NCBI GenBank assembly: GCA_043772535.1
Contig: JAYVGC010000063.1
Coordinates: 4,613-68,612, forward strand
DNA length: 64,000 bases
Direction of reading: 5' to 3'
Origin: Flavobacterium sp.
GTDB lineage: Bacteria; Bacteroidota; Bacteroidia; Flavobacteriales; Flavobacteriaceae
A program made the translations under genes and the position numbers. The notes under the pieces are model-generated. The model had not been told where the DNA came from. It made no database searches and worked only from the letters and a program-made list of their open reading frames with translations. Shown piece after piece: positions 1 through 18,271 of the stretch. Each line of letters opens with the position of its first letter. The stretch's first letter is position 1.

Positions 1-14
1 AAATTGACAATAAA

Positions 15-1712: not shown

Positions 1713-1812
1713 GAGCTAGGTATTATCTAGGTACTTCTAGATACATACCTCAAAAATACCCACAAATATACCTGCTTTCATTTGCCCTGTATAACATTAA
1801 AAAATACAGGAC

Positions 1813-2100
1813 ATGCAAACAAATGCGATTTTACTTCAAAACCTAACAGTTGAACAACTTCAACAGATTATAGGTACATCCGTAAAAAACGGAATTCTTG
1901 AACTACAAAAAGAGTTAAACTCCAAAAATGATGATGAGGAATTGCTCACCAGAGAGGAAACTTGCAAATTCTTAAAAATCGACAGCAGCACACTTTGGGC
2001 TTGGACAAACAAAGGCAAAGTCCTTGCTCACGGCATTGGTGCGCGTCGTTACTACAAAAGAAGTGAATTATTAGAGTGTCTAACCTTATTAAAAAAGTAA
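1813..2100 (+). CDS. small helix-turn-helix DNA-binding protein (excisionase/MerR-like HTH_17 type)
   Basis: 95 aa. The C-terminal segment 'LLTREETCKFLKIDSSTLWAWTNKGKVLAHGIGARRYYKRSEL' has the typical excisionase-family HTH pattern. It precedes a primase-like gene, as in Bacteroidota mobilisable islands. Confidence 0.7.
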   Translation: MQTNAILLQNLTVEQLQQIIGTSVKNGILELQKELNSKNDDEELLTREETCKFLKIDSSTLWAWTNKGKVLAHGIGARRYYKRSELLECLTLLKK

Positions 2101-2103
2101 GCT

Positions 2104-2391
2104 ATGGAATTCTACGAAAACACAGAAAAAACACTTTCCAAAATAGAAAGCAATGTAGTTGAAATGTCAGCTAAAATGAAGTTGGGTTATAAAATGGATC
2201 CGGATAATATTTTTTTCGACAGTCAAGAATTTATGCAACTAATGAATATTAGTAAAAGAACAGCCCAACAATGGAGAGATAATAAAACTATCGGTTTTTC
2301 TCAAGTGGGGAATAAGATTTATTATAAGCTTATAGACATACTAAGACTTCTAGAAGAAAACTACAACCCTAAAAAAGAAATACTAAAATAA
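2104..2391 (+). CDS. small helix-turn-helix DNA-binding protein (HTH_17-like), paralogous in architecture to the preceding gene
   Basis: 95 aa with 'FFDSQEFMQLMNISKRTAQQWRDNKTIGFSQVGNKIYYKLIDI'. It starts 3 nt after the previous gene. Confidence 0.65.
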   Translation: MEFYENTEKTLSKIESNVVEMSAKMKLGYKMDPDNIFFDSQEFMQLMNISKRTAQQWRDNKTIGFSQVGNKIYYKLIDILRLLEENYNPKKEILK

Positions 2392-2404
2392 TCCAATTAA
2401 GCTG

Positions 2405-4642
2405 ATGGTATCAACATATAAAAATTTCAAAACAAAATTGGAGGACAATAGTATTTTAAACATTCTCCAAGATATAAAAAACGGTAAGTATGAAAGTGAA
2501 ATCAAATCTATTCGCTATGCTATGCAATCGGGTAAAGAAAAACAAGCGGATGAATTAAAAAGTGAATTACTGGCATTTACAACTTCTGGAACATTTGACA
2601 AACAAAGAAAATCAGAATTTTTAAAAACCTATTCTCAAATCATAAATCTTGATTTCGACCACATTCCACTCGAAGAATTAGAAAGTCTTGTGGCAAAAAT
2701 AAACGATTGCAAGTTTACACTTGCTTCGTTTATTAGCCCAAGAGGCGAAGGGATTAAAGTATTCATTAAAATCAATTCTAATGCAGAAAAACACGCAATT
2801 GCATACAATCAGGTGGCTAATTTTTATAAAACTATTACAGGTTTCGAATTTGACCCAAAATGCAAGGACATTACCCGCTTGTGTTTTGTTTCTTATGATC
2901 CAAATACTTTTTTAAATGAAAATGCTACAATATTTGAGGTAGTAGAAAAATTAATAGAACCAAAAGCAAAAGTTGAAAATCAAATAGCACAAAATCTTTC
3001 AACAGATGAATTATTGGAGAAATGTTTAAAATTCACAGAGCAAAAAGAACAATATCATAACGGAAATCGTAACAATTTTATTCATTTGTTTGCTAGTAAT
3101 TCCAATCGGTTCGGTATCTACGAAGCAGATACATTGGATTATTGTGTTACTAATTTTGATTTAGACGAGAAAGAAATAAAAAACGCAGTCAACAGCGCAT
3201 ACAAAAATCAAAGTGCAGACTTTGCAAAGTTTGCAAAGTCTGCAAACTTGAAAACTAACGAAACAGTAACAAAAAAGGATTCTGTTTTAAAACCAGTTAT
3301 AGAAGAAGAAGATTATTTAAAAACCACTCCAATAATTCCGCAATCGGTTTACGATAACTTGCCTCCTATCCTATTCGAAAGCTGTACAGTATTTAAAGGA
3401 GCAAGAGAAAAAGATGTATTTCTAACAGGAGCATTAGCCATTCTTTCGGGTTGTTTACCAAATGTTTGTGGTTTGTATAGTGGTAGTGTGGTTTATCCAA
3501 GTTTATTTTCGTTCATATTAGCACCAGCTGCATCAGGAAAAGGAGCATTAAAATTTGCAAAGGCATTAGCCGATAAATATCACAGTACAATTTTAGAAGA
3601 ATCAAAAGAAGCTAGAAAGATTTACGAAGAAAAATTGGCAGCCTACAAAATGCTAAAAAGCAAAAATAAACTAGATGCCAACCAAGAAATGCCACAAGAG
3701 CCAAAATTCAAGGTGGTTTATATTCCGGCAAACACAAGTAATGCAAAAATAATTCAGCATTTAGATTGGAACGAGGGTAAAGGAATAATTTGCGAAACGG
3801 AAGCCGACACTTTAGGACAAACTTTTAAAAATGATTGGGGTTCTTATTCCGATATGCTTCGCAAATCGTTTCATCACGAAAAAATATCAGTAAGCCGTAA
3901 AACAGATGCGGAATTTGTTGAGGTAAATGAACCGCAACTTTCAGTTGCATTATCCGGAACACCAAAACAAGTCTTTAATATTATTGCATCGGCAGAAGAT
4001 GGATTGTTTAGTCGATTTATTTTCTATGTTTTTAAAACAGATGCAGTTTGGTTAGACCCGTCCCCAAAAGGAAATCCTGTAAACTTAACGGACTATTTCA
4101 ATAAGCAATCAAAACAAGTTTTTAAAATGGTTGAATTTTTTGAAAGAGACAGTATGACACTTCAATTAACAGAGGAACAATGGGATAAATTCAACCCTAT
4201 TTTTAGCTCGTATTTAGTACAAATAAGCACTTTTGTTAGTGATGACGCACAAAGTGTAGTAAAGCGATTAGGTATCATTTTATTTCGTTTGTGTATGATA
4301 TTTACAGCCATTAGAAAGTTTGACACAAACGATCATCATAAAGAGATTTATTGTTCAGATACTGATTTTGAAACTGCATTAACATTAATAAAAACCTATT
4401 TGCAGCATAGTATCATAATGTTTGAGAACTTGCCAAAACAAGGAGAGCAAGGACCTTTCAAATCAGGCGAAAACAAAAAGTTGTTTTATGATGCATTACC
4501 AAATGAGTTTCAACGTAAGGAAGCAGTAGAATTAGGAGTAAATTTTAATATAAAAGAAAGAACAGTCGATAATTTTCTAAAAGCTTGTTTGGGTAAATAT
4601 CTTATAAAATCGGATACAGGACTTTACAAAAAAATCCAATAA
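2405..4642 (+). CDS. primase-polymerase-like N-terminal domain (VirE/BT4734-like) fused to a DUF3987-type P-loop domain; island replication/mobilisation protein
   Basis: The N-terminus has 'IINLDFDHIP' and 'ITRLCFVSYDPN', typical of BT4734-like primase N-domains. The central part has a Walker A 'APAASGKGALKFA'. 745 aa. Confidence 0.75.
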   Translation: MVSTYKNFKTKLEDNSILNILQDIKNGKYESEIKSIRYAMQSGKEKQADELKSELLAFTTSGTFDKQRKSEFLKTYSQIINLDFDHIPLEELESLVAKINDCKFTLASFISPRGEGIKVFIKINSNAEKHAIAYNQVANFYKTITGFEFDPKCKDITRLCFVSYDPNTFLNENATIFEVVEKLIEPKAKVENQIAQNLSTDELLEKCLKFTEQKEQYHNGNRNNFIHLFASNSNRFGIYEADTLDYCVTNFDLDEKEIKNAVNSAYKNQSADFAKFAKSANLKTNETVTKKDSVLKPVIEEEDYLKTTPIIPQSVYDNLPPILFESCTVFKGAREKDVFLTGALAILSGCLPNVCGLYSGSVVYPSLFSFILAPAASGKGALKFAKALADKYHSTILEESKEARKIYEEKLAAYKMLKSKNKLDANQEMPQEPKFKVVYIPANTSNAKIIQHLDWNEGKGIICETEADTLGQTFKNDWGSYSDMLRKSFHHEKISVSRKTDAEFVEVNEPQLSVALSGTPKQVFNIIASAEDGLFSRFIFYVFKTDAVWLDPSPKGNPVNLTDYFNKQSKQVFKMVEFFERDSMTLQLTEEQWDKFNPIFSSYLVQISTFVSDDAQSVVKRLGIILFRLCMIFTAIRKFDTNDHHKEIYCSDTDFETALTLIKTYLQHSIIMFENLPKQGEQGPFKSGENKKLFYDALPNEFQRKEAVELGVNFNIKERTVDNFLKACLGKYLIKSDTGLYKKIQ

Positions 4643-4714
4643 TAAGTTTTTATGGTATTAAACTTTATAACTACTTTAGCCATTTATGTGTATTTAGGAT
4701 AATTAAACTTATAA

Positions 4715-5464
4715 ATGAAAGAGACAATTAATATATATTGTGATGAAAGTTGTCATTTACAGAATGATAAGCAATCAAATATGGCTTTAGGTGCAGTATA
4801 TTGCCCTGCCGCCAAGAAAGATGAAATCTTCTTACGCATATCAGAGATTAAGAGAAAACACAAACTTTTACCCAAATATATAAAAAACGAAAAACAAAAT
4901 AGACCTATTTATGAAATTAAATGGAACAAGGTTTCAAAAAACCAATTGCCATTTTACAAAGAAATAATTGATTTTTTCTTTGATGACGATGATTTAAGTT
5001 TTAGAGTATTAGTTGTCCCAGATAAAGAAAAATTAGACTATAAAGCATTAGGGCATACGCATGATACTTTTTACTATAAAATGTACTTTAATATGCTAAA
5101 AGTTATTTTAAATCCTGAATATGCACACAATATTTACATTGATATAAAAGATACTAAAAGTCGTGAAAAAGTACACAAACTAGAAAAAGTACTTAGAAAT
5201 GATAAGTATGATTATTCTAAAGAAATCATTAAAAAAGTACAACAAGTTCGTTCACATGAAATTGAATTAGTGCAACTCGCAGATTTATTTACGGGTGCAG
5301 TTTCTTATATAAATCGTGGTTTAAATACAAGCGATGCTAAAATGGAGTTAATAGAACACATTAAACATCGTTCAAGATATTCCTTACTTAAATCTACATT
5401 GATAAAAGAAAAGAAATTCAATATTTACCTTTGGACACCATCTAATCAAAGCGTAAATTTATGA
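4715..5464 (+). CDS. DUF3800-like protein
   Basis: The N-terminal 'INIYCDESCHL' motif (the I-Y-x-D-E-S signature of DUF3800) and the later 'VQLADLFTGAV' fit the family. 249 aa. Confidence 0.65.
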   Translation: MKETINIYCDESCHLQNDKQSNMALGAVYCPAAKKDEIFLRISEIKRKHKLLPKYIKNEKQNRPIYEIKWNKVSKNQLPFYKEIIDFFFDDDDLSFRVLVVPDKEKLDYKALGHTHDTFYYKMYFNMLKVILNPEYAHNIYIDIKDTKSREKVHKLEKVLRNDKYDYSKEIIKKVQQVRSHEIELVQLADLFTGAVSYINRGLNTSDAKMELIEHIKHRSRYSLLKSTLIKEKKFNIYLWTPSNQSVNL

Positions 5465-5958
5465 GTAATTTAGTGCCCTTAACTTTTCCAAGTCTTGAAT
5501 TATTTCAACATTACGGTGGTGATTTCAAAACTTATTTTTCAGCAATTTATAATATTTTTGAAAATCATTTTATTAAAAATAAAACATTATTTCAAGGAGT
5601 TCATGTTACAGCAAAAGCACTTCCTTTAGTTGATGGAATACATAATACTTTTTATCATATAACACATGAAGGAGAAGATGAAGATAATCGTACGCCAGAC
5701 TTTAGACGAATGGAAAGAATCCGTTATCCTGAATTTATGATTGTTAATAGCCCTAATGATGATCTTCTAATATGGAAGAATAAAAGAGGTAGAGATACTA
5801 AAATTGTAATTTTGAATGAATCAGAAGAGTATGTTGTTGTTTTAACTGAAAGACCAGGATATAATCTTTTTTGTACTGCTTATTATATTGATAAAGAGCA
5901 TAGAAAAAGAAAACTGATGAAAGAATACCAAGAGTATATAAATGCCAAAACCGCTTAG
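5461..5958 (+). CDS. hypothetical protein, translationally coupled partner of the DUF3800-like gene
   Basis: ATGA start/stop overlap with the upstream gene. 165 aa with a charged core 'YHITHEGEDEDNRTPDFRRMERIRYPEF'. No family recognised. Confidence 0.6.
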   Translation: MSNLVPLTFPSLELFQHYGGDFKTYFSAIYNIFENHFIKNKTLFQGVHVTAKALPLVDGIHNTFYHITHEGEDEDNRTPDFRRMERIRYPEFMIVNSPNDDLLIWKNKRGRDTKIVILNESEEYVVVLTERPGYNLFCTAYYIDKEHRKRKLMKEYQEYINAKTA

Positions 5959-6219
5959 GGTTACTAAACGGTTTCTATACTCCTTTAACGCTTACAACAC
6001 TAAATGTTTGGTCCCTGAGCTGGTGCAAATGTATAAAAGTATTATTTATTTTAAATGCTTTTTAACATATATTTTAAAATTGACGTAAAGGTCAATGATA
6101 ATAAGCTTTCACGTTTCATAAAGATACAAAATAATAACTAATTAATAAAAATAATATAAACCAGACTAGTAAATTAATCATAAAAAAATAAAGTCTAGTA
6201 TATTAAAAACAAAATAAAA

Positions 6220-7788
6220 ATGTCAGAAGACCAAAAAAAACAACTCGAACAACAACTTTGGAATATTGCCAATACCCTTCGTGGTAAAATGAATGCAGAT
6301 GAGTTTAGAGATTACATACTAGGATTTATTTTCTATAAATACCTTGCCGAAAAAATGGAAATTTATGCCAATGGTATTCTGAAAACAGACGGTGTAAAGT
6401 ACAAATCCATAAACGAAACTACTAAAAACGGTACTGAATACATTGATGCTATTCGTGAAGAAGCTTTAGAAACTTTAGGATATTTCTTGAAACCTAATGA
6501 ACTTTTTAGCGAAGTAGCAAAACGTGGTAATAGTGATATTGAAGGACAAAGTAATTTTATTATCGAAGACCTTCAAAAAATCCTAATCAATATACAATTA
6601 AGTACAATGGGTACAGAAAGCGAAGATGATTTTGACAATCTCTTTGAGGATATGGATTTGAACAGTACGAAACTTGGAAAAACTCCTGATGCTAGGAATG
6701 AAATTATAGCCAAAGTACTTTCGCATTTAGACAAGATTGATTTCAAATTAGAAGATACTGAATTAGATGTTTTAGGCGATGCCTACGAATATTTAATAGG
6801 TCAGTTTGCCAGTGGTGCAGGAAAAAAAGCAGGAGAGTTTTACACCCCACAAGAAGTAAGCACTATTTTGGCAAAGATTGTAACTACAGGAAAAACCAAA
6901 CTAAAATCGGCTTACGACCCAACATCAGGAAGCGGATCGTTACTTTTAAGAATTGCAAGACAAGTCAAGGAAGTAAGTATGTTTTACGGTCAGGAAATGA
7001 ACCGTACCACCTACAATCTTTGCCGAATGAATATGATTTTACACGGTGTGCATTACCGCAAATTCGATATAAAGCAAGAAGATACTTTAGAACACCCTCA
7101 ACATTTAGGTTTACAATTTGAGGCAATTGTTGCCAATCCTCCATTTTCTGCTCAATGGAGTGCCAATCCATTATTTACTAGCGATGACCGATTTTCTCAA
7201 TACGGTAAATTAGCACCAGGCAGTAAAGCCGATTTTGCTTTTGTACAACATATGATACATCATTTGGCAGATAATGGTACAATGGCTTTGGTTTTACCAC
7301 ACGGAGCATTGTTTCGAGGTGGTGCCGAGCAACATATTAGAAAGTATTTAATTGAAGACCGCAATTATCTAGATGCAGTAATAGGTTTGCCAGCCAATAT
7401 TTTTTATGGCACTCCAATTCCAACGTGTATTATGGTTTTTAAAAAATGTAGAGAAAATCCTAATGAAGTATTGTTTATTAATGCAAGTGAATATTTTGAA
7501 AGAGGTACACAAAACACTTTGCGCCCAGAAGATGTTGATAGGATTATTACAACGTATAGAAAAAGAGAAGAAATTGACAGATACAGTCATTTAGCAACCT
7601 TACAAGAAATTGAGAATAACGAATACAATCTTAATATTCCTCGTTATGTAAATACCTTTGAAGAACAAGATAGTGTTGATATTCCATTAGTTTCAATAAA
7701 GTTAAAAGGGTTAGAAAAAGAACTGAGTGCTACTGATGATGCATTACTATCTTTCTGTAATGAATTAAATATTGAAACTCCTTTTTAA
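6220..7788 (+). CDS. hsdM: Type I restriction-modification system, N6-adenine DNA methyltransferase subunit M
   Basis: Has 'LWNIANTLRG' (HsdM N-terminal domain), 'YEYLIGQFASGAGKKAGEFYTP', 'DPTSGSGSLL' (SAM motif I) and 'VANPPFS' (motif IV). Confidence 0.93.
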   Translation: MSEDQKKQLEQQLWNIANTLRGKMNADEFRDYILGFIFYKYLAEKMEIYANGILKTDGVKYKSINETTKNGTEYIDAIREEALETLGYFLKPNELFSEVAKRGNSDIEGQSNFIIEDLQKILINIQLSTMGTESEDDFDNLFEDMDLNSTKLGKTPDARNEIIAKVLSHLDKIDFKLEDTELDVLGDAYEYLIGQFASGAGKKAGEFYTPQEVSTILAKIVTTGKTKLKSAYDPTSGSGSLLLRIARQVKEVSMFYGQEMNRTTYNLCRMNMILHGVHYRKFDIKQEDTLEHPQHLGLQFEAIVANPPFSAQWSANPLFTSDDRFSQYGKLAPGSKADFAFVQHMIHHLADNGTMALVLPHGALFRGGAEQHIRKYLIEDRNYLDAVIGLPANIFYGTPIPTCIMVFKKCRENPNEVLFINASEYFERGTQNTLRPEDVDRIITTYRKREEIDRYSHLATLQEIENNEYNLNIPRYVNTFEEQDSVDIPLVSIKLKGLEKELSATDDALLSFCNELNIETPF

Positions 7789-7790
7789 TT

Positions 7791-9020
7791 ATGGAAAATC
7801 GAACTGCAATACCAGTAATCCGTTTTCCAGAGTTTACAGACCATTGGAACAACACAAAACTTAGTGAACTTTTAAAAGAAGCTAAAAAAAGAAATACCGA
7901 TTTAAAATATACTAAAGACGAAGTACTTTCTGTTTCTGGCGAAATGGGTATTGTAAACCAAATTGAACACTTAGGCAGAAGCTATGCAGGCGTTTCAGTG
8001 CATCAATATCACGTCGTGGAATTGGGAGATATTGTTTATACCAAAAGTCCATTAAAAGCAAATCCTTATGGTATTATAAAACAAAACAAAAGCAAAGCCG
8101 GAATTGTATCTACACTTTATGCAGTGTATAACGTAAAACAAGAAAATGCACACGGCGAATTTATAGAACACTATTTCTCTTTAGATGAAAATACCAATCG
8201 GTATCTTAGACCATTAGTAAAAAAAGGTGCTAAAAACGATATGAAAATTAGTAATGCCTATGTATTACACGATAAAATCTTTGTTCCATCAACTACCGAA
8301 CAAAAAAAGATAACTTTGTTCTTAAACACTTTAAATAAAAAAATAGAACAACTCAAACAAAAGAAAACTCTTTTGGAACAATACAAAAAAGGAGTAATGC
8401 AAAGACTATTCTCTCAAGAGTTAAGATTTAAAGATGAGAATAGAAATGAGTTTCCTGAATGGAAGAGAAAAAAACTTGGAAATTTAGGTGATTGTTTTAT
8501 TGGATTAACTTACTCTCCAAACGATGTTGTAGAAAGTGAAGGGACTTTAGTTTTACGTTCATCAAATGTACAAAATGGTAGATTAGCGTTTCAAGATAAC
8601 GTATTTGTAAATACAGTAATATCTGAAAAAAACTACGTTAAGGAAAATGATATTTTGATTTGTGCAAGAAATGGAAGCAAAAGCCTTATTGGTAAATGTG
8701 CTTTAATAAGTAAAGAAAATGAAGGTTATGCGTTCGGTGCTTTTATGTCAGTTTATAGAAGTAAGTATAATCGTTTTATTTATCATCTTTTTCAAACAGA
8801 TTTATTCTTTAGCCAAATTAATGAACATCTTGGAGCAACAATTAATCAGGTTACAACAAAAAGTTTAAATTCTTTTTCATTTAATTTTCCTTGTGAAGAA
8901 GAACAAGAAAAAATAGCTGTTTTTTTAGCGACTATAGATGATAAAATAAGCCGGACAAAAGCCCAAATAGAAAACACCCTACAATACAAAAAAGGGTTGT
9001 TGCAAAAAATGTTTGTGTAA
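7791..9020 (+). CDS. hsdS: Type I R-M specificity subunit S (two target-recognition domains)
   Basis: Starts 2 nt after hsdM. There are two TRD halves, each followed by a conserved helical region ('EQKKITLFLNTLNKKIEQLKQKKTLLEQYKKGVMQRLFSQ' and 'EQEKIAVFLATIDDKISRTKAQIENTLQYKKGLLQKMF'). Confidence 0.9.
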   Translation: MENRTAIPVIRFPEFTDHWNNTKLSELLKEAKKRNTDLKYTKDEVLSVSGEMGIVNQIEHLGRSYAGVSVHQYHVVELGDIVYTKSPLKANPYGIIKQNKSKAGIVSTLYAVYNVKQENAHGEFIEHYFSLDENTNRYLRPLVKKGAKNDMKISNAYVLHDKIFVPSTTEQKKITLFLNTLNKKIEQLKQKKTLLEQYKKGVMQRLFSQELRFKDENRNEFPEWKRKKLGNLGDCFIGLTYSPNDVVESEGTLVLRSSNVQNGRLAFQDNVFVNTVISEKNYVKENDILICARNGSKSLIGKCALISKENEGYAFGAFMSVYRSKYNRFIYHLFQTDLFFSQINEHLGATINQVTTKSLNSFSFNFPCEEEQEKIAVFLATIDDKISRTKAQIENTLQYKKGLLQKMFV

Positions 9021-9079
9021 AAATATACGTTTTAACGTATTTTTATTCTATTATTTTTTTTTATAAAGTTTATTAGTTA

Positions 9080-9087
9080 TATTTTTG
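9080..9087 (+). promoter_or_regulatory. candidate Bacteroidota -7 promoter box (TAnnTTTG) upstream of the inserted cassette
   Basis: 'TATTTTTG' matches TAnnTTTG about 55 nt upstream of the 9141 ATG, in the only sizeable gap (120 nt) of the hsd operon. No clear -33 TTTG was seen. Confidence 0.25.
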
Positions 9088-9140
9088 CACTCTATAAAGA
9101 GAGTTCCATTGCTTGAATATGGATATTAAATTAAATAGTT

Positions 9141-9380
9141 ATGAACAATTTTTTCGAAGAATTAAAGAAGTATTTTGAGGTTACACCTCAAGAGAAAGTC
9201 TTGAAAGATTGGGCAAAAAGCGCAGAATTTGACAAGATTGGGCCAACTGTAGAAGAGTTTCTGAAAAATACCCAAATGTATTATCAGATTCATTCAGAAG
9301 ACCCACAAAAGGGATGTCTAATAGAAAACAACCAATATAGCCCGAAGTATTCTTCGGGTTTTTTTTATCTAAATAAATAG
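9141..9380 (+). CDS. small hypothetical protein (79 aa), first gene of the cassette inserted in the hsd operon
   Basis: ATG-initiated ORF ending 4 nt before the next gene. It has an acidic helical N-terminus and an aromatic C-terminal tail, 'YSPKYSSGFFYLNK'. Confidence 0.55.
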   Translation: MNNFFEELKKYFEVTPQEKVLKDWAKSAEFDKIGPTVEEFLKNTQMYYQIHSEDPQKGCLIENNQYSPKYSSGFFYLNK

Positions 9381-9384
9381 TATT

Positions 9385-9792
9385 ATGCAAAAAGCAGCAT
9401 TTTCAATTATCAATTATCAATTTGACAAAGTATCGATTGATTTAAGCAATCACAACAACAAAGACCTATCGCTCTCGTTTGATACAAGCGGCATATATTT
9501 TAATGAAAATCAAAATTTTGAATTAAGATTTGTAGTTAAGGTTGCTCAAAATGCAGATGAAAAATCATTTGCCGAAATAAGTTGTAAAGGAACTTTCAAA
9601 TTTGAGAACATTGAAAGCTTTGAAAATATTCCTGAATTTTTCTACAGAAACAGTATTGCAATTTTGTTTCCTTATGTTAGAGCCTATTTAAGTTTAGTTA
9701 CTACACAAGCAAATGTACCTGGAATCATTTTGCCAACTCTAAATTTATCTAATTTAGAAGCCGAACTAAAGAAAAACACCACTCAAATATAA
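9385..9792 (+). CDS. SecB-like chaperone
   Basis: 135 aa. It aligns by eye along its whole length with E. coli SecB: 'FSIINYQFDKVSIDLSN' vs 'FQIQRIYTKDISFEAPN', and 'NSIAILFPYVRAYLSLVTTQANVPGIILPTLNLSNL' vs '[35 protein letters not shown]'. Confidence 0.75.
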   Translation: MQKAAFSIINYQFDKVSIDLSNHNNKDLSLSFDTSGIYFNENQNFELRFVVKVAQNADEKSFAEISCKGTFKFENIESFENIPEFFYRNSIAILFPYVRAYLSLVTTQANVPGIILPTLNLSNLEAELKKNTTQI

Positions 9793-9798
9793 TTTATT

Positions 9799-10377
9799 TT
9801 GACTATCAGAACAGTTTATCAAACACTAGAAGATAGAGGAAATCCTGATTATGTTGAGCAAAATGGACCGTTTAAATGTGACCGTAATAATGCTTGGCTT
9901 GGGGATGGCTACTATTTTTGGGACTCTTTTATAGAGAATGCTCATTGGTGGGGTTCAGAAGGTGCGTCTTATAGAAACGGTTATATGATTTGTAAATCTA
10001 CCTATTTATTAGATGAAGAAAAATGCTTTAATTTAATAGATAACGCTTTACATTTTAAAATGTATAACGACACTAAACAATTAATGACAGATAAAGGTTT
10101 ATATAAAGAAAATAGTACAACGGTAGCAAGAATTATTGAACATACTAAAAACACATTAAAAATTTTTAAATACGAAGCTATTAGGGCTTACGGTGTAAAT
10201 AGTAAATCTTTCAACTCACCTTTTAGTAACAGAACTATTTTTGACAATAATCATAATACAAAATATTTAGATTCTTTGCCAGCAATTCAGATTTGTTTCT
10301 ATTCTGCTAAATGTCTACATTTAAACGGTGTTAAAGTAATACATCCACCAGAATACAATGACGAATATTTAGTGTAA
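9799..10377 (+). CDS. hypothetical protein (192 aa), candidate effector/toxin of the inserted cassette
   Basis: TTG start 6 nt after the SecB-like gene; ends 2 nt before hsdR. It has a W/Y-rich motif, 'NAWLGDGYYFWDSFIENAHWWG'. No family confidently recognised. Confidence 0.55.
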   Translation: MTIRTVYQTLEDRGNPDYVEQNGPFKCDRNNAWLGDGYYFWDSFIENAHWWGSEGASYRNGYMICKSTYLLDEEKCFNLIDNALHFKMYNDTKQLMTDKGLYKENSTTVARIIEHTKNTLKIFKYEAIRAYGVNSKSFNSPFSNRTIFDNNHNTKYLDSLPAIQICFYSAKCLHLNGVKVIHPPEYNDEYLV

Positions 10378-10379
10378 AA

Positions 10380-13235
10380 ATGGCAAAACAACCCGAACAA
10401 ATTTTAGAGGAACAATTAGTAGAACAATTGCAAAAGTTAGGCTACAGCAATGTGGTAATCAAAGACGAAAAAGATTTACTTTCCAATCTTAAAAAGCAAT
10501 TAGAAAAACACAATAACATTACTTTTTCAGATAAAGAATTTGAGAGAGTTTTAAATATTCTAAGCAAAGGTTCTGTATTTGAAAAAGCCAAAACACTCAG
10601 AGAAAAGCAACACATAGTTAGAGATAACGGTGATAATCTTTATTTTGAGTTTATTCAATCAGAACACTGGTGTCAAAACCAATTCCAAGTTACCAATCAG
10701 GTTACAATGGAAGGAAGTTACAAAAACCGATACGATGTAACCCTATTGATTAATGGTTTTCCATTGGTACAAATAGAACTAAAACGTAGAGGATTAGAAC
10801 TAAAAGAAGCATTCAATCAAACTAATCGTTATCAAAGACATTCATTTGGTGCAGGTGTAGCATTATTTCAATACATTCAAATATTTATAATTAGTAACGG
10901 GGTTAATACAAAATATTACGCTAACAATAAATACCAATCATTCAAACAAACCTATTACTGGACCGATAAAGAAAATAAACGTTTAACCAATATCCTTAAT
11001 GGTTTTACAAGTGATTTTCTCGAACCGTGTCATATCTCTAAAATGATATGTAAGTATGTGGTTATGAATGAAGCCAATAAGATATTAATGGTGCTTCGAC
11101 CATATCAATATTATGCTGTTGAAGCTTTAATTGACAAAGTAAAAAACAGCAATCACAACGGTTATATTTGGCACACAACAGGATCAGGCAAAACCCTAAC
11201 TTCGTTCAAAGCCAGCCAAATCATTATGCAAATGCCACAAGTTAAAAAAGTGGTTTTTGTTGTTGACAGAAAAGATTTAGATTACCAAACAACCAAAGAA
11301 TTTAATAGCTTTAGTAAAGGCAGTATTGACGGAACAGACAATACAAAGGCATTAGTAAAACAGTTTTCAGACGATACAAAATTAATAGTTACTACCATTC
11401 AAAAATTAAATACGGCAATAAGCAAAAGCCAGTATTTAAGTAAAATGGAAAAACTTAAAGACGAACATATTGTCTTTATTTTTGATGAGTGCCACCGTTC
11501 CCAATTTGGAGAAACACACAATCGAATTAAAGATTTTTTCAATAACTATCAAATGTTTGGCTTTACCGGAACACCAATTTTCGCTGATAATGCTGTTAAA
11601 AATGAATTAGGAAAAAGAACTACAAAAGAATTATTTGGCGAATGTTTGCATAAATATGTAATTACAGATGCTATTAAAGATGAAAATGTATTAAAGTTTT
11701 CCATTGAATACGTTGGAAGGTATAAGCAAAAAGAAAGTGCTACAGCAATAGATATTGAGGTAGAAGATATTGACACAAAGGAGTTAATGGAAGCTCCTAA
11801 GCGTTTAGAAAAAATAGCAGATTACATAATAGCACATCACAATCGAAAAACCTATAACAAGGAATTTACAGGAATGTTTTGTGTGAGTAGCGTTGATACT
11901 TTAATAAAGTATTACGACATATTACAACAAAAGAAATTAGCAGGTCAGCACAATTTAAAAGTAGCTACAATATTCAGTTATACAGCAAATGAAGACGATG
12001 CAGATGCAAACGGATTTATTCCTGAAGAATTATCAGTTGTTGGAGAACCAAAAGCATTATATGGTTTAAATGTGCATACTCGTGAAAAGTTAGATGAATT
12101 TATTGGTCATTATAATGCAATGTTTGAAACCAAGTTTTCTACCAAAGACAGCGAGAGTTTTTATAACTATTACAATGACATTTCCAAAAAAGTAAAAGAA
12201 CGTAAAGTTGATGTTTTGTTAGTTGTAAATATGTTTCTTACAGGATTTGACAGCAAACCATTAAATACATTATACGTTGATAAAAATCTAAAATATCACG
12301 GATTAATTCAAGCCTATTCCAGAACCAATCGTATTCTAAATGAGCAAAAGTCACAAGGAAATATAATTGTATTCAGAAACCTCAAGAAAGCAACAGACGA
12401 AGCAATAACCTTGTTTAGTAATAAAGAAGCTATTGAAGAAATTATAATGAAACCTTACGAGGATTATGTAAAAAAATTCAATGATGCTTTTATTGGGTTG
12501 CTAAAAGTAGTTCCAACGGTTAACAGTGTTAATAATCTCCAAAGCGAAGAAGACGAATTAGAATTTATAAAAGCATTTCGTGAGTTAATGCGTATCAAAA
12601 ACACAATGGCAACTTTTGCGGATTTTGTTTGGGAAGATTTAGCAATGAATGAGCAACTTTTTGAAGACTACAAAAGCAAATACCTTGATTTATACGATAA
12701 AGTAAAAGACGAACACCAAGCAGAAAAAGTATCAATTCTTGAAGATGTTGATTTTGAATTGGAGTTAATTCATCGTGATGAGGTTAATGTTACCTATATT
12801 TTGAAATTATTAGCAGGATTAAAAGACACTACAAAAGCAGATAAAGAAAGAAAACAAAAAGAGATTATTGATTTATTGACTGGAGAAGCTAATCTAAGAA
12901 GTAAACGAGAATTAATCGAAAAGTTCATTTTAGAAAACCTGCCGGTAATTGAAGATACCGATACAATCCCAGAAGAATTTGATAAGTATTGGAATGAAGA
13001 ACAACAAAAAGCATTCGACGAATTAGTAAAAGAAGAAAACCTATCAGCGGAGAAAACCCATAAATTAATAGAAAGTTATTTATTTGCAGAAAGAGAACCA
13101 TTGAGGAATGAGGTTTTAGATTTAATTGAAGGAGAAAAACCATCAGTACTACATCGCAAAAAATTAGGCGATAAAATCCTTAATAAAATAGTTGGTTTTG
13201 TGGAAACTTTTATTAATGGGGTAGCAGGGAGTTAA
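10380..13235 (+). CDS. hsdR: Type I restriction endonuclease subunit R (SF2 helicase/nuclease)
   Basis: N-terminal nuclease region with 'VTLLINGFPLVQIELKRRG', Walker A 'HTTGSGKTLT', DEAH box 'FIFDECHRSQ', and motif VI 'LIQAYSRTNR'. 951 aa. Confidence 0.93.
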   Translation: MAKQPEQILEEQLVEQLQKLGYSNVVIKDEKDLLSNLKKQLEKHNNITFSDKEFERVLNILSKGSVFEKAKTLREKQHIVRDNGDNLYFEFIQSEHWCQNQFQVTNQVTMEGSYKNRYDVTLLINGFPLVQIELKRRGLELKEAFNQTNRYQRHSFGAGVALFQYIQIFIISNGVNTKYYANNKYQSFKQTYYWTDKENKRLTNILNGFTSDFLEPCHISKMICKYVVMNEANKILMVLRPYQYYAVEALIDKVKNSNHNGYIWHTTGSGKTLTSFKASQIIMQMPQVKKVVFVVDRKDLDYQTTKEFNSFSKGSIDGTDNTKALVKQFSDDTKLIVTTIQKLNTAISKSQYLSKMEKLKDEHIVFIFDECHRSQFGETHNRIKDFFNNYQMFGFTGTPIFADNAVKNELGKRTTKELFGECLHKYVITDAIKDENVLKFSIEYVGRYKQKESATAIDIEVEDIDTKELMEAPKRLEKIADYIIAHHNRKTYNKEFTGMFCVSSVDTLIKYYDILQQKKLAGQHNLKVATIFSYTANEDDADANGFIPEELSVVGEPKALYGLNVHTREKLDEFIGHYNAMFETKFSTKDSESFYNYYNDISKKVKERKVDVLLVVNMFLTGFDSKPLNTLYVDKNLKYHGLIQAYSRTNRILNEQKSQGNIIVFRNLKKATDEAITLFSNKEAIEEIIMKPYEDYVKKFNDAFIGLLKVVPTVNSVNNLQSEEDELEFIKAFRELMRIKNTMATFADFVWEDLAMNEQLFEDYKSKYLDLYDKVKDEHQAEKVSILEDVDFELELIHRDEVNVTYILKLLAGLKDTTKADKERKQKEIIDLLTGEANLRSKRELIEKFILENLPVIEDTDTIPEEFDKYWNEEQQKAFDELVKEENLSAEKTHKLIESYLFAEREPLRNEVLDLIEGEKPSVLHRKKLGDKILNKIVGFVETFINGVAGS

Positions 13236-13265
13236 AAATAAATAATTGTATAATTTCAAAAAAAA

Positions 13266-13296
13266 CCGCCTCAGTTTTGAGACGGCTTCTTTTTTG
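13266..13296. terminator. bidirectional rho-independent terminator between convergent hsdR and the ImmA-fusion gene
   Basis: Hairpin 'ccgcctca gttt tgagacgg' (one mismatch), with an A-run before and 'cttctttttt' after. Confidence 0.6.
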
Positions 13297-13311
13297 TTTA
13301 TGAAAAGGTTT

Positions 13312-14373
13312 TTAATTTCTAATTATTTTAAATCTTGTGTCTTTTTTAAAATACATTTCCTGTAAATCTTCTTGATTTATATTTAATAATCCTGCAATTT
13401 CAGATTTTGAATATTCCAATTCATCTGAATATTTTTCTATAATTTCAGTTAAAAGGGTTGGTGTTTCTGATATTACTTCAAGTTCTTTTGGTTCTTTAGT
13501 TTTATAACCAAGCATTGACATTTGTTGCCATAAGTACCTATACTGATTATCGGTTATCATATTTAAAGCTTTACATCTATATAATAAAGACCCCATAGAA
13601 ACTCTCCAATATAACTTAAGATTTGCCAATGTTCTTAAATCAAAAGACACAATTGTACTTTTAAATTCTTTTTCCGGCACAAGTAATTCTGATGCAAATT
13701 TCATAGCTTCTTTTTCCACATCTCTTTCAATATCAATTATTCTTCCGAAGTGCATAATTAAATGCCCTAATTCGTGGGCAATAGTAAGTCTCTGTCTATC
13801 ACCAGGCATATTGCTATTGTAAAATATGAGTGGCTCATTGTTTGTTGTGTACATACTCAAACCATCAAATTTATCTGCTCCAAAATCAAATGGAATAACA
13901 ATAATTCCATTGTCCTCAATTAATTTTACTAAATCATCTATTCTACCTTTTGGTATTTTCCATTGTTGTCTCAATGTTATTGCAGCTTCCTCGGGAGTAC
14001 CATTTTTATCAACATCCCACTGAAATAGATTATCATCGGGCAATTCAACGCTACTTAACAATTTTTCAATATTCATTCTAACAATATTTATTTTTGCTTC
14101 CGCTTTTAAAAGAACTTTCTTTTTTACAGCAATTCTTCTACGGTAATAAATTAAATCTGGATTATAAATATTGTCTTGTTGATAAAAGAAACTTTCAGGA
14201 TAGTTTAAAACATTACAAAATTTTTCAATATTTTCTACTGATGCAGATTGTATTCCTTTTTCTATTTTAGATAGCGATCCTTGAGTTATACCAAGCAATT
14301 CACATAATTCCTTTTGCGTATAACCTCTTGCTTCTCTGGCCAATACTAACATTTTGGAATTTATTTCTTTCAT
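13312..14373 (-). CDS. XRE-family HTH fused to an ImmA/IrrE-type (COG2856, M78-like) zinc metallopeptidase
   Basis: N-terminal 'ARGYTQKELCELLGITQGSLSKIEKG' (HTH_3) and a central HEXXH 'TIAHELGHLIMH'. 353 aa. Confidence 0.85.
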   Translation of the reverse strand: MKEINSKMLVLAREARGYTQKELCELLGITQGSLSKIEKGIQSASVENIEKFCNVLNYPESFFYQQDNIYNPDLIYYRRRIAVKKKVLLKAEAKINIVRMNIEKLLSSVELPDDNLFQWDVDKNGTPEEAAITLRQQWKIPKGRIDDLVKLIEDNGIIVIPFDFGADKFDGLSMYTTNNEPLIFYNSNMPGDRQRLTIAHELGHLIMHFGRIIDIERDVEKEAMKFASELLVPEKEFKSTIVSFDLRTLANLKLYWRVSMGSLLYRCKALNMITDNQYRYLWQQMSMLGYKTKEPKELEVISETPTLLTEIIEKYSDELEYSKSEIAGLLNINQEDLQEMYFKKDTRFKIIRN

Positions 14374-14393
14374 TTTAAATATTATTTATTTTT

Positions 14394-15008
14394 TTAATGT
14401 TTATCTGTACCAGTTTCTTTTTTCTCGGTCACTTTAACTTTAACACGACTTGGCTGTTTTGGTTTAGTTTGTTCAGTACTTTCAAATGTAAACTGTGTTT
14501 GTTCTGCAAAAGAAGTTAAATTTTTAACCCAAATTACATTTCCACCATTTTTGCACATAATAAATATATCTTTGATACTTGTCCAAGTTGGATTTGGAAT
14601 GTAGCCAGCATACAAAAACGTTGCTTGTTTAGGTAGACCTTCAATCTCTACTTGTTTTTCAAAATTCCTTGTCTGTTTTGTCTTTACATTTGAAGTTGTA
14701 TAATCAGCATTAATTTTTTTAAAACGAATTAGAAACTTTTTATCGATATGCAAACCGAATATTTTATTAAATTCTTTCGTTTCGACATTCTCTATCTGTG
14801 AATACTGTTGTTTAACTCTATCTTTTATAAAATCGTGTACTAAATTTGCAATCGTCCTTTTTTCAAAGTTGATAGGTTTTTTGTTTCTGTTCCATTCATT
14901 AATGAAACCTTGACAATCTTCGAAACCATCATTTATACATTTTGCAATAACATCAAAATGTACATTTAAAATGCTTTCTGCTTCTTTTAGAGGTAATATA
15001 CTTTTCAT
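14394..15008 (-). CDS. hypothetical protein, upstream gene of the XRE/ImmA operon
   Basis: 204-aa ORF lying 20 nt upstream of the ImmA-fusion gene on the same strand, with a lysine-rich C-terminal tail. No motif recognised. Confidence 0.55.
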   Translation of the reverse strand: MKSILPLKEAESILNVHFDVIAKCINDGFEDCQGFINEWNRNKKPINFEKRTIANLVHDFIKDRVKQQYSQIENVETKEFNKIFGLHIDKKFLIRFKKINADYTTSNVKTKQTRNFEKQVEIEGLPKQATFLYAGYIPNPTWTSIKDIFIMCKNGGNVIWVKNLTSFAEQTQFTFESTEQTKPKQPSRVKVKVTEKKETGTDKH

Positions 15009-15229
15009 CTTAAATCATTTATTTAAACAAAGATATGAAACATTTTGCAAAAACACAAAAAAATATTCCTTAAAATATTCCCTTAAATTAATTAAAAATA
15101 TTCCTATATATGCAAATGTCTTGTTTTTAGTGTTTTAATTAAACTTATTTTTGTCGAGTTTAATATGTTTAAAAGAAAAATCATTTTCTCTTTCACTTCA
15201 CAAATTAGCTATAATTTAAGTTTTCAAAA

Positions 15230-16210
15230 TTCAAATAATTTCAAAAGAACATTTTCGTTACAAACAACACGGGCAATCAAGCGGTCTCTCTTCGGTCGTT
15301 CCCTTTGTTCCGTTCGGCTGTTCCAGTCGGTCAACCTTATATATTCATAAGAACATTTTCGGGAAATAGGTAATTTATTATTTCTATTCAATAGTTAGGT
15401 TTCCCTCCGTTTCACAGGCACTTCACAGCACTAAAAAAAACAGCAGCTTGAAAATAAGCAGCTATTTTTTTTGCGCTGTTTCGTTCCTCATCTTCACACG
15501 GTCTCTACCCTACGTTCGGTCGGGCTTATGCATCCACAATACCGCTTCATTTCGTTACACTCCGCAGGCTACGTTTCACTACATTCCAGCAGTATTATGT
15601 CTGCCGCCCTCAGTATTTTCAGCGGTTGCTCCTTCGCACAGCCATCGGGGTTGGCTCCGTTAGCACTTTGCCCTAAATCAAGGAACGCCAAAGGCTGACT
15701 TATATTTTTTCCCCGCCGTTACACGCTGCTATCCCTTCTCTCCACTTCGCAAAGGCTACGTTCCGTTCTCGGTCTAGCGTGGCTGTTCGATTGCCGCAAC
15801 ACCGCCACATCGCTCCTCACAAAAAATTCCGTAAAAACTCCATTTTTTGTTGCGGTGCTTGGGGGTGTTTGATTGCCGATTACAAATGAAGCATCCCAGA
15901 AAAAAGTCTACACAAGAAACATCCTGCTACTAAAAAAATAAATAAAAAGAAAGCAAAGGTAAGTTTCGGTTTCAAAAAGTAAAGTTCAAGCCCTACGGGT
16001 TTTTGAAAAAATCTCCACCCTTACATTTCCAATTCAACATTTGATTACACGATGACGATTTCATTTCATAAGAACAATTGGGTAGTATTTTTTCAAAAAA
16101 ACTTGACTCCTTTTGAAACCTCCACTGATACGACGACTTTCTTTTTTTTCTTTTTTTCTTTTAAAAATGATATGGTGCGGAGCGTAGCGACAGCATCATT
16201 TTAAATCCGA
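15230..16210. other. ORF-free, GC-elevated, pyrimidine-skewed segment with short internal repeats (structured RNA, REP-like cluster or decayed DNA)
   Basis: Only short overlapping ORFs. Exact repeats: 'aagaacattttcg' (15245, 15349), 'ttcataagaaca' (15344, 16065), 'aggctacgtt' (15566, 15753) and 'gttccgttc' (15307, 15760). There is also a polypyrimidine tract at 16138-16163. Confidence 0.5.
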
Positions 16211-16214
16211 AACT

Positions 16215-16637
16215 ATGCCAAATTTCATCGTCAAAACCCACAGAAAGAATGTTGTTTATACAGGAAATCAAATTTACATTCTCAACAAAGGATCGAATAG
16301 TGGAAAACCACAAAAAAAACCTTTTACAAATAGTTTTGTAATTATTTTTCAAAACGAAGATGATACCGAATCGGTTTATTGGTTAGCTTATAGCCTTTGG
16401 AAATCAAAGTTCTGGCATCAGTCACTTTGTGGTTCTGTAATTCCATTTTTACGTCTTACTGACTTCAAGAAAAATTTTAATCCAAAGCTTTCAGAAATGA
16501 TTTTGAATTTTGAGCTGCATCAAAAGCAAATAAACACGTTGAGATTATTAGAAGAAAAAGAGCAAAATTTTCAAAAGAACTTAATTTTAATAAATGAATT
16601 GAGAAGATCGATTTTACATAATTATTACAAATTCTAA
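16215..16637 (+). CDS. hypothetical protein (140 aa); weak resemblance to half of an HsdS-like specificity subunit
   Basis: ATG ORF with 'IYILNKGSNSGKP' and 'GSVIPFLRLTDFKK' followed by a helical tail. The resemblance to an HsdS TRD plus conserved helix is by eye only. Confidence 0.45.
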   Translation: MPNFIVKTHRKNVVYTGNQIYILNKGSNSGKPQKKPFTNSFVIIFQNEDDTESVYWLAYSLWKSKFWHQSLCGSVIPFLRLTDFKKNFNPKLSEMILNFELHQKQINTLRLLEEKEQNFQKNLILINELRRSILHNYYKF

Positions 16638-16728
16638 TTTTGCATATGATCAACCTTTATTCCGTACTTGTTTGCACTATATCTCACATATAAGTCCCCA
16701 TTATAGATAAATTGATGCAAAATAAAAA

Positions 16729-16752
16729 AAGCCCTCTCAAATGAAAGGGCTT
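16729..16752 (-). terminator. rho-independent terminator for the 267-aa minus-strand gene
   Basis: Hairpin 'aagccct ... agggctt'. On the minus strand it is followed by a T-run (complement of the A-run at 16723-16730). Confidence 0.55.
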
Positions 16753-16799
16753 AATTTGCAACATTGCAAACTTTGCAGTATTGCAAACTGATGGTTTTT

Positions 16800-17603
16800 T
16801 TAGAAAGTCTCTTGGATCTTTAAAGCATTACCAGCATTGAATAAGTAATAATTTGAACCTACCATTTGATAAAATTCTATTCCAATACTTCCCAAAACAG
16901 CTACATTAGTTGTTAGTGTTGGAGCACCCGGTAAAGTAGCAACAACATCAATTGACGAAGTTACGACATCAATTGGAGTATAACCAGAATAAGCAATGTT
17001 TGCCAATTCATTTAAAGCAGGTTCAGCAGGTTCGTAAGCACCAGTAGTAGGATTGTAAATAGTATCTGAAACAACAGATAAAGCATTGATGATTCTGAAA
17101 TGAGATGCTCCTGCAGGAATATTCAAATAATTAAGAGGATTAAAAGACGGAATACTAAAAGTACTTTCGTTTCTGTCAACCGTAGCAGATAATGTAAATG
17201 GAGCACTGAAAACACCATTAAACGAAATGTTACGATTAAAATCCAAACCTTTTAAATATTGTGGTTGTTGTGAAACCAAAACAGCTCTTTGCCCTCTCGC
17301 TTCTGAACCATCTTCAATATTGATTTTCTTCATAATGGCAGTCAGTCGACCTGTTAGTTGACTATCAGACATTTGTTTCATCAATGCCGATAAACCAATT
17401 CTTAATGATTTACCCGCATTTGCACAAGCTGCAAACTCACTCATATTTTCACGTGTACGAATAAAGCCAGGTGCCGTTTTTACTTGTTCCGCAGTTGGTC
17501 CGCCTTTCAGACCTGCAAAATAACCTTCGTTACCTTTAATTTTGAAGTGTCTCACTTCTCCTAAAGTTCCGACATATTTAATATGCCCTTTCTGTCTTGC
17601 CAT
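16800..17603 (-). CDS. conserved hypothetical protein (267 aa)
   Basis: Clean ORF whose composition differs from its AT-rich neighbours. The N-terminus 'MARQKGHIKYVGTLGEVRHFKIKG' resembles a family I recall as widespread but uncharacterised in Bacteroidota (memory only). Confidence 0.6.
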   Translation of the reverse strand: MARQKGHIKYVGTLGEVRHFKIKGNEGYFAGLKGGPTAEQVKTAPGFIRTRENMSEFAACANAGKSLRIGLSALMKQMSDSQLTGRLTAIMKKINIEDGSEARGQRAVLVSQQPQYLKGLDFNRNISFNGVFSAPFTLSATVDRNESTFSIPSFNPLNYLNIPAGASHFRIINALSVVSDTIYNPTTGAYEPAEPALNELANIAYSGYTPIDVVTSSIDVVATLPGAPTLTTNVAVLGSIGIEFYQMVGSNYYLFNAGNALKIQETF

Positions 17604-17682
17604 TTTTATGTGTTTTAAATTAAAAATATTTATTAAATTTACACAGTAAAATACTAATAATCAATTACTTAATAAATGCAAT

Positions 17683-18177: not shown

Positions 18178-18191
18178 AAGTATATATAATG

Positions 18192-18213
18192 AATGTGGGC
18201 TAAATGTGGGCTA
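18192..18213. repeat. perfect 2 x 11 nt tandem repeat 'aatgtgggcta'
   Basis: Read directly from the sequence. It lies between the nuclease stop and the tRNA 3' end. Confidence 0.8.
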
Positions 18214-18228
18214 GAAGTAAAAACAAAA

Positions 18229-18266: not shown

Positions 18267-18271
18267 AAAAG

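Follow-up and report, generated by a model that had tools for sequence, protein, structure and literature searches.

A CmdTAC-Family Antitoxin–Chaperone–Toxin Cassette with a Terminator-Like Hairpin Inside the Antitoxin Gene, Carried Between hsdS and hsdR of a Flavobacterium Type I Operon

Introduction

CmdTAC, also designated PD-T4-9, is a validated toxin–antitoxin–chaperone (TAC) abortive-infection (Abi) system (PMC9519451, PMC11618068). Here, we analyze a three-gene cassette of this family in a 64-kb stretch of Flavobacterium sp. DNA (contig JAYVGC010000063.1; hereafter ‘the window’, in which position 1 is the first letter), where it lies between hsdS and hsdR of a Type I restriction–modification (R-M) operon. 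In E. coli, the toxin CmdT is an ADP-ribosyltransferase (ART) that modifies GA dinucleotides in single-stranded RNA; the antitoxin CmdA combines N-terminal helices with an unstructured C-terminus ending in LAA and is degraded by ClpP; and CmdC, a SecB-like chaperone, is titrated by newly synthesized capsid protein (PMC9519451, PMC11618068). The systems of E. coli ECOR22 and O112ab:H26 (Vassallo 2022, 2024; Mets 2024) are built from the same three protein families as the window cassette, and the abortive-infection logic is presumably common to both.

The window cassette nonetheless departs from its E. coli counterparts. Its genes run antitoxin–chaperone–toxin (A-C-T), whereas the E. coli order is toxin–antitoxin–chaperone (T-A-C). 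The O112ab:H26 antitoxin is 121 amino acids (aa) long and carries an Ala-Ala ClpXP degron; the window antitoxin has 79 aa and no such ending. The window cassette also has a terminator hairpin within the antitoxin open reading frame (ORF) and Gln in place of His at the first position of the toxin triad, resides in a Bacteroidota host, and lies inside a Type I R-M operon.

Other TAC systems are more distant. The Mycobacterium tuberculosis HigBA1-SecB(TA) system and its like share the logic of a chaperone guarding an antitoxin with an aromatic-dependent C-terminal addiction region, but their toxin and antitoxin families are unrelated to those of the window, and their gene order differs. We know of no internal terminator described in any of them; TAC systems, HigBA1-SecB(TA) included, are reportedly treated by Bordes in 2011 and 2016.

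Taken jointly, the evidence makes it quite probable that the window holds a CmdTAC-family A-C-T cassette that works much as the E. coli system does, carries a terminator inside its antitoxin ORF, and is interchangeable cargo of the hsdS–hsdR junction. The family is already known and named, so the core of the finding is not new. The new elements are a permuted, antitoxin-first clade in Bacteroidota; a covarying terminator in the antitoxin ORF that alternates with an Ala-Ala degron; and a cassette that is exchangeable cargo of a Type I hotspot, the hsdS–hsdR junction.

Protein Families of the Cassette

The middle gene of the trio (9385–9792, + strand) encodes a cmdC-like, SecB-family chaperone of 135 aa. 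An original prediction, based on alignment by eye, had called this protein SecB-like, and the likeness extends to a significant match with the Pfam SecB profile PF02556 (E = 1.4e-7; 31.9 bits, with a gathering cut-off of 26). Over its full length, the protein matches the PADLOC model PD-T4-9_C (E = 9e-57). A housekeeping SecB is ruled out: by the NCBIfam cut-offs for export SecB equivalogs, the scores are far too low, and the gene never occurs outside the trio.

The third gene (9799–10377, +) starts with TTG and encodes a cmdT-like toxin of 192 aa, residues 1–192 of which align with positions 1–187 of the 187-residue PADLOC profile PD-T4-9_A (PDLC04068; E = 7e-73). A tblastn search of phage and plasmid records with the toxin gave two distant matches only, which served as canonical T-A-C references. 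By BLASTP, the toxin aligns over its full length with the annotated PD-T4-9_A protein of a Vibrio phage (E = 2e-12, 21% identity), and the chaperone matches the same annotated locus at E = 6e-6. The AlphaFold2 (AF2) model of the toxin has a predicted confidence (pLDDT) of 94.7, and Foldseek relates it to phage ART-PolyVal domains (E = 1e-4, probability 1.0) and to the ART domain of PARP-1 (E = 0.03, probability 0.92). The published CmdT triad is H-Y-[E,D,Q], with Y41 as the catalytic Tyr in ECOR22. In the window family, Y39 and Q164 are invariant across 72 sequences, and position 8, opposite His10 of the Vibrio protein in the alignment, is always Gln (Q8); toxins of canonical-order loci can likewise have Gln there. 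A distant blastn search of E. coli genomes with the Vibrio locus gave no match, and a profile search seeded with canonical-order toxins had no E. coli sequence among its best 120. The PDB, searched by sequence with the toxin profile and the chaperone, gave no match either.

The first gene (9141–9380, +) encodes the 79-aa protein, which has 58 database homologues, every one unnamed. Its assignment as a cmdA-like antitoxin draws on a family hidden Markov model (HMM), an AF2 model, and codon periodicity. The AF2 model has helices at residues 4–14, 17–32, and 37–51, followed by a C-terminal stretch of ~28 aa with pLDDT ~50, i.e., disordered. Across the family, the ORF is intact at every locus, W24 and G34 do not vary and P35 hardly does, and the codons of the N-terminal domain show coding periodicity (0.43, 0.31, and 0.58 at positions 1, 2, and 3). 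The family HMM also matches the ORF in antitoxin position at canonical T-A-C loci, with E-values of 4e-10 (L052), 1.8e-7 (L076), and 1e-12 to 2e-6 (L163–L165). The antitoxin of the CmdTAC family has been called ‘widely variable’ in the published literature.

The aromatic tail that the original prediction saw in this protein recurs across the family as [SN]P[KE][FY]x[SL][GD]FF. In the window, it reads K69-Y70-S71 and then F74-F75, with the [KE]-[FY]-x-[SL] core conserved across the family, and the protein ends in GFFYLNK. A preprint by Mets et al. gives the pattern of the chaperone-addiction region (ChAD) as polar–aromatic–small residues, which the motif K-[FY]-[ST]...FF fits. The evidence thus supports a CmdA-like antitoxin with a helical N-terminus and a disordered, aromatic, ChAD-like tail. 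The earlier picture of a TAC or Abi module, with antitoxin, chaperone, and toxin of 79, 135, and 192 aa, is supported in all three assignments. It had left the 192-aa protein as a possible toxin, which was right as far as it went, but it missed both the ART-like nature of this protein and the named family.

Recurrence, Gene Order, and Expression Signals

A toxin profile scan of GTDB representative genomes yielded 80 loci, nearly all in Bacteroidota. About 70 of the 80 have the same three families in the same A-C-T order, a recurrence that the original prediction had left to be surveyed, and the trio is also present on viral contigs; overall, some 75 loci, mostly in Bacteroidota, show this order. 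Flavobacterium tibetense YH5 has a near-identical locus with the layout hsdM-hsdS-A-C-T-hsdR. Judged from these genomes, the co-occurrence of the three genes is far beyond chance. The observation that the gene order is unlike that of described TACs holds as well: A-C-T here and T-A-C in the published systems. The published survey of CmdTAC homologues required a toxin, then an ORF, then SecB, and would therefore have missed the A-C-T clade.

The trio has its own expression signals. A box of the form TAnnTTTG, noticed earlier in the 120-nt gap upstream of the cassette, is found there as TATTTTTG (9080–9087, +); it reads as a Bacteroidota-type −7 promoter box and is probably the cassette’s own promoter. 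At 48 of 53 loci, such a box lies no more than 160 nt ahead of the antitoxin gene, as against 11.5% of random windows. Start codons are skewed in the toxin gene, with TTG at 43, GTG at 10, and an unambiguous ATG at 13 of 69 loci; the chaperone gene starts with ATG at 71 of 78 loci, and antitoxin genes likewise mostly use ATG. The TTG and GTG starts look like a conserved means of holding toxin translation low. As far as comparative genomics can tell, the three genes form a conserved mobile unit that is autonomous and brings its own promoter box.

A Terminator-Like Hairpin Inside the Antitoxin ORF

A terminator scan, folding, and covariation analysis converge on an intrinsic-terminator-like RNA hairpin and U-tract at 9339–9366 (+), within the antitoxin gene. 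The stem (9339–9347 paired with 9352–9360) is G+C-rich and 9 bp long, with five G-C pairs; it closes on a tetraloop (9348–9351) and runs into eight T residues (9359–9366). Its folding free energy (dG) is −17.1 kcal/mol (z = −4.1). The hairpin codons specify S67–F75, and the U-tract ends 11 nt before the stop codon at 9378–9380. The aromatic tail of the original prediction is real; what that reading missed is that a conserved terminator hairpin encodes it. An Rfam scan of 8900–10500 returned sub-threshold chance matches only. On the opposite strand, a 69-aa ORF at 9181–9390 was treated as spurious.

Elements of this kind are rare. Only two such strong hairpins with a T-run occur on either strand of the window; the other (16729–16752, − strand), 48 nt past the stop of the gene at 16800–17603, was used as a reference for a genuine gene-end terminator in this genome. 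Across the family, a hairpin with a T-run lies directly upstream of the chaperone gene at 64 of 78 loci, with control rates of 2/76 in chaperone gene bodies and 5/76 in toxin gene bodies. A terminator past the toxin gene is uncommon (4 of 62 loci outside hsd operons and none of the 7 embedded in them).

Stem variants differ by compensatory changes, e.g., CCCGAAG/CTTCGGG, TCCGAAG/CTTCGGA, CTCGGAG/CTTCGAG, and TCCAGAG/CTCTGGA, and these changes alter the encoded residues. Third-position synonymous changes go together with non-synonymous changes in the pairing partner, and pairing also survives where both partners change non-synonymously (P to S with G to S). Among 43 distinct hairpin sequences, 93.8% of cells are paired, and six of the nine pairs have both-sided changes. 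Double-change cells number 49, compared with 16.6 ± 3.3 in shuffles that ignore kinship, none of 500 of which reaches 49. Sliding the partners by one column lowers pairing to 56% and 63%, and this control, with the tracking of synonymous sites, is stronger evidence for covariation than the shuffles. The many G·U pairs in the stem place the structure in the sense-strand RNA, where alone such pairs are possible, and rule out a DNA-level element.

At loci L046 and L054, a 2-nt insertion in the loop abolishes the peptide motif yet leaves the hairpin in place. The hairpin codons have no codon periodicity (0.31, 0.34, and 0.38 at positions 1, 2, and 3), and among the closest relatives, T-runs of eight, nine, or seven residues give the tails GFFYLNK, GFFLSK, and GFFI. 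On this comparative evidence, the alignments show a conserved RNA hairpin and U-tract inside the antitoxin ORF that is kept at the RNA level. With its G+C-rich stem and U-tract, it is a textbook intrinsic terminator in form and probably terminates transcription.

Possible Roles of the Hairpin: Attenuation and Degron Supply

The position of the hairpin suggests an attenuator. It would end part of the transcription past the antitoxin, leaving more antitoxin mRNA than chaperone, toxin, and hsdR mRNA. In ToxIN, an internal terminator between the first and second genes skews the product ratio. Similarly, an internal terminator between the first and second genes of the HicAB operon of IncI2 plasmids tunes the product ratio, with more toxin than antitoxin (PMC11878559); the window terminator differs in standing past the antitoxin and inside its ORF. 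A purely gene-order-specific attenuator is weakened by 11 A-C-T loci without a hairpin, whose antitoxins end in -AA, and by one T-A-C locus that has a hairpin. Indeed, absence of the degron predicts the hairpin better than gene order does.

The relation between hairpin and C-terminus is close to exclusive. C-terminal AA or VA occurs in only 3 of 72 hairpin-bearing antitoxins, compared with 15 of 17 hairpin-less ones, which typically end in Y-x-L-A-A. The hairpin-less genes truly lack local structure, with a median best dG of −7.1 as against −13.8. In all 75 hairpin-bearing genes, the stop codon lies 2–64 nt downstream of the U-tract, in a search that also allowed terminators past the stop. On an approximate neighbor-joining toxin tree, the hairpin and degron states switch at least five to six times, with rare intermediates carrying both. 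The uniform stop position, the near-exclusivity with Ala-Ala, and the repeated switching point beyond simple attenuation.

A further role, which we put forward tentatively, from gene sequences, and hold to be possible though less likely than its negation, is that the in-ORF terminator generates a degron. Transcripts ending at the hairpin would have no stop codon; ribosomes would stall on such non-stop antitoxin mRNA, and transfer-messenger RNA (tmRNA) would append an SsrA tag ending in YALAA in place of an encoded Ala-Ala. The tagged antitoxin would be a ClpXP substrate unless the chaperone shielded the adjacent aromatic motif, with the outsourced tag standing in for the Y-x-L-A-A ending that canonical CmdA-type antitoxins encode themselves. 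Degron supply of this sort would explain why hairpin and encoded Ala-Ala are nearly exclusive and have been swapped repeatedly, why the stop codon always lies past the U-tract, and why the residues after the U-tract drift freely, including changes of T-run length among relatives. Tagging would not be the whole story, since toxin and chaperone can come only from read-through mRNA, which also encodes untagged antitoxin.

There is a described parallel in Bacillus subtilis brfA, which, like the antitoxin gene, has a rho-independent terminator within its ORF, a few codons short of the stop, and there the terminator yields non-stop mRNA and an SsrA-tagged, rapidly degraded product (PMC6881298). The two cases differ in setting. 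brfA and E. coli arfA, both expressed from non-stop mRNA, encode ribosome-rescue factors, with nothing downstream that needs read-through, whereas here the gene encodes an antitoxin and is followed by chaperone and toxin. SsrA tagging has been seen for brfA; for the window antitoxin, it is our proposal.

The hsdS–hsdR Junction and Linkage to Restriction–Modification Systems

The host operon is a Type I system on the + strand. hsdM (6220–7788) encodes the methyltransferase subunit (Pfam N6_Mtase, E = 8e-107, with HsdM_N); hsdS (7791–9020) encodes the specificity subunit, matched by Pfam Methylase_S in two stretches; and hsdR (10380–13235) encodes an IC-like restriction subunit with HSDR_N, SWI2_SNF2, T1R_D3-like, and EcoR124_C domains. 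The cargo junction starts past the hsdS stop codon. The original prediction described three same-strand ORFs of 79, 135, and 192 aa between hsdS and hsdR, and both its coordinates and its spacings match ours: 2 nt from hsdM to hsdS, 120 nt from hsdS to the first ORF, 4 and 6 nt between the three ORFs, and 2 nt from the last to hsdR.

Clustering the 366 genes that flank the cassettes gave 320 clusters, in which HsdR, HsdS, and HsdM are the sole recurrent neighbors, at about 10 of 80 loci; ~85% of antitoxin-first cassettes lack hsd genes next to them. The cassettes embedded in hsd operons are spread over at least five clades of the toxin tree, and relatives with HsdR 71–80% identical to that of the window have toxins that drop to 39–46%. 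L003 and L005 are sister cassettes with and without hsd genes.

A metagenome scan seeded with the HsdR N-terminus gave ~47 loci of this HsdR lineage. The junction is empty in 18 of them, with hsdS directly next to hsdR; in 28 it holds other co-directional cargo of 0.6–6.2 kb, and in only one the A-C-T cassette. Among the cargos (L084–L155) are AbiD/Abi_2 with a small upstream ORF (six loci), Fic/DOC (three loci), and the PDC-M04 A/B pair (L086 and L105). Others have no family match: a protein of 200–297 aa (six loci), one of 290 aa (four loci), one of 430 aa (two loci), and a three-gene set with a helix-turn-helix (HTH) protein (two loci). With empty junctions and at least 12 unrelated cargos, the hsdS–hsdR junction is a hotspot for interchangeable cargo of the Abi or toxin–antitoxin (TA) type.

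Cassettes of the family also occur beside other R-M genes. A second CmdTAC clade, in canonical T-A-C order, sits at the 3′ end of Type III operons (mod-res-T-A-C) at all five loci examined (L163, 3001–4197; L164, 3001–4195; L165, 3001–4208; L076; and L078), with the toxin start −8 to +5 nt from the res stop codon; the hosts are Maribacter, Dyadobacter, Myroides, a Methylophilaceae, and a Saprospiraceae. In two Psychroflexus genomes (L032, L034; 3349–6042, 7802–9772), an A-C-T trio is flanked by an MmeI-type R-M gene on one side and a DEAD/ResIII helicase gene on the other. In the same Type I operon of Arcicella aurantiaca (L059, 2817–6069), RhuM separates hsdM from hsdS, and a DUF1016/YhcG PDDEXK nuclease stands ahead of the cassette, after hsdS; more than one junction of the operon takes cargo. 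Linkage of the CmdTAC family to R-M systems is thus recurrent, while the genomic pattern does not indicate a specific mechanistic coupling.

For the window itself, the original prediction had the cassette ‘wired into’ the Type I R-M operon. The position between hsdS and hsdR holds, but the wiring is weakly supported, because most cassettes lie outside hsd operons and the junction holds many interchangeable cargos. At all seven embedded loci, no terminator separates toxin and hsdR. The cassette is probably co-transcribed with hsdR; beyond that, the gene arrangement gives no sign of mechanistic dependence on the R-M enzyme.

Proposed Mechanism and Alternative Explanations

By extension from the E. 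coli system, the 79-aa antitoxin would bind and neutralize the 192-aa toxin through its N-terminal helices, and a tetrameric SecB-like chaperone would hold the disordered aromatic tail. A phage protein made in bulk would titrate the chaperone, and the antitoxin would be lost; the freed toxin would then ADP-ribosylate RNA, block translation, and abort the infection. Several observations weigh against transferring this scheme to the window. Matches of the toxin to solved ART structures are weak, the best being that to PARP-1; the first triad residue is Gln rather than His, and the triad was aligned via the Vibrio-phage PD-T4-9_A protein. The 79-aa protein has no match to the PADLOC PD-T4-9_B models, its family is not significantly similar to Vibrio PD-T4-9_B (BLASTP and hhalign, E = 0.35 and 0.3), and its link to canonical antitoxins was obtained only through the broader family HMM. 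It also lacks the C-terminal Ala-Ala that canonical CmdA needs as a ClpXP degron. Toxicity, the ADP-ribosylation target, the phage trigger, termination, and tagging are all inferred from sequence.

The rival with the most to commend it is a guard in the manner of PrrC, i.e., a cassette coupled to the Type I enzyme as a second line for this restriction system, either silenced by the R-M complex or triggered by phage anti-restriction proteins. In type IC EcoprrI loci, prrC sits at the hsdS–hsdR position, and the comparison with PrrC made in the original prediction is apt in this respect: the window cassette shares the position, and its HsdR has the type IC EcoR124_C domain. PrrC and the Campylobacter rlo genes are likewise latent suicide or Abi effectors, co-directional between Type I hsd genes. 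The 2-nt spacing to hsdR without an intervening terminator and the repeated fusions to R-M systems (about 10 Type I loci, all five T-A-C loci with Type III mod-res, and MmeI) also speak for a guard. However, PrrC is obligately linked to EcoprrI homologues of type IC and is physically silenced by the enzyme (PMC1484252), whereas the window family lives mostly outside hsd operons, in otherwise unrelated flanks, with its own sensor and antidote. Sister cassettes come with and without hsd genes, the junction carries many other cargos or none, and E. coli CmdTAC needs no R-M system, its own chaperone being the sensor (PMC11618068). We therefore regard a PrrC-like guard as unlikely. Slightly less likely still is an addiction module, in which the trio would mainly stabilize the R-M operon or the island, with no role in phage defense. 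TA systems can stabilize mobile DNA (PMC11878559), and the cassette does sit in an island that adjoins tRNA-Ser and carries a primase-type gene (DUF3987); yet characterized family members abort phage infection (PMC9519451, PMC11618068), other cargos at the junction are of Abi type (AbiD, Fic, PDC-M04), and the cassette also occurs on viral contigs.

Two further rivals concern the hairpin and the gene that contains it, and both are much less credible. The hairpin might be an accidental by-product of the codons for a chaperone-binding peptide (PK[FY]xSGFF), with no RNA role: a related peptide, NP[E]xx[YF]S, occurs in T-A-C antitoxins without a hairpin, and the loop encodes an aromatic residue that is conserved for the most part. 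Such an origin is very improbable given that synonymous changes track non-synonymous changes of the partner, that P to S with G to S keeps the pairing, that L046 and L054 keep the hairpin with the peptide motif destroyed, that codon periodicity is absent over the hairpin codons, and that a 1-nt slide of the partners collapses the pairing. Conversely, promoter box, short transcript, and intrinsic terminator resemble a small RNA gene of ~230 nt, and the 79-aa ‘gene’ might encode an RNA antitoxin, with a spurious ORF. The intact ORF at all loci, the coding periodicity of the N-terminal domain (0.43/0.31/0.58), the conserved W24, G34, and P35, the confidently modeled helices, and the homology of the family to protein antitoxins of T-A-C loci leave this idea scarcely tenable. 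The CmdTAC-family reading, with a protein antitoxin whose gene contains an RNA-level terminator, remains our preferred one.

The Surrounding Island

The cassette lies in a defense island (window 1–18356) bounded by a tRNA-Ser gene (18271–18356, −), beyond which are the housekeeping genes ribBA, lptF/G, lolA, and ftsK. Just upstream of hsdM is a PDC-M04 A/B candidate defense pair, a DUF3800 protein and its partner (4715–5464 and 5461–5958, +; PADLOC E = 3e-89 and 2e-60), homologous to the pair carried as junction cargo at L086 and L105. Convergent with hsdR, an RmrA-like gene (13312–14373, −; PADLOC E = 1e-69) encodes an HTH and an ImmA/IrrE-type peptidase region, and the 204-aa ORF next to it (14394–15008, −) has no family match; the two may be another defense or regulatory pair. 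The island also carries a DUF3987/BT4734-like primase-type gene (2405–4642) typical of Bacteroidota mobile elements, and no integrase was identified within it.

Significance

These results take the experimentally characterized CmdTAC family into Bacteroidota, with genes arranged in a way that the design of the published survey excluded. Given that order requirement, and a PD-T4-9_B model that misses this antitoxin, censuses of defense systems probably under-count the family. Our results also identify the hsdS–hsdR junction as a site at which a widespread, type IC-like R-M lineage swaps cargo of the Abi/TA type, and the cargos without a family match are candidate new defense genes. Finally, the alternation between hairpin and Ala-Ala offers a concrete hypothesis, namely that the supply and lability of the antitoxin are set at the RNA level, including through non-stop mRNA and tmRNA tagging. 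If this were true, antitoxin lability would be determined by transcription termination and trans-translation, and the threshold for triggering the cassette would be tied to the state of host transcription and ribosome rescue.

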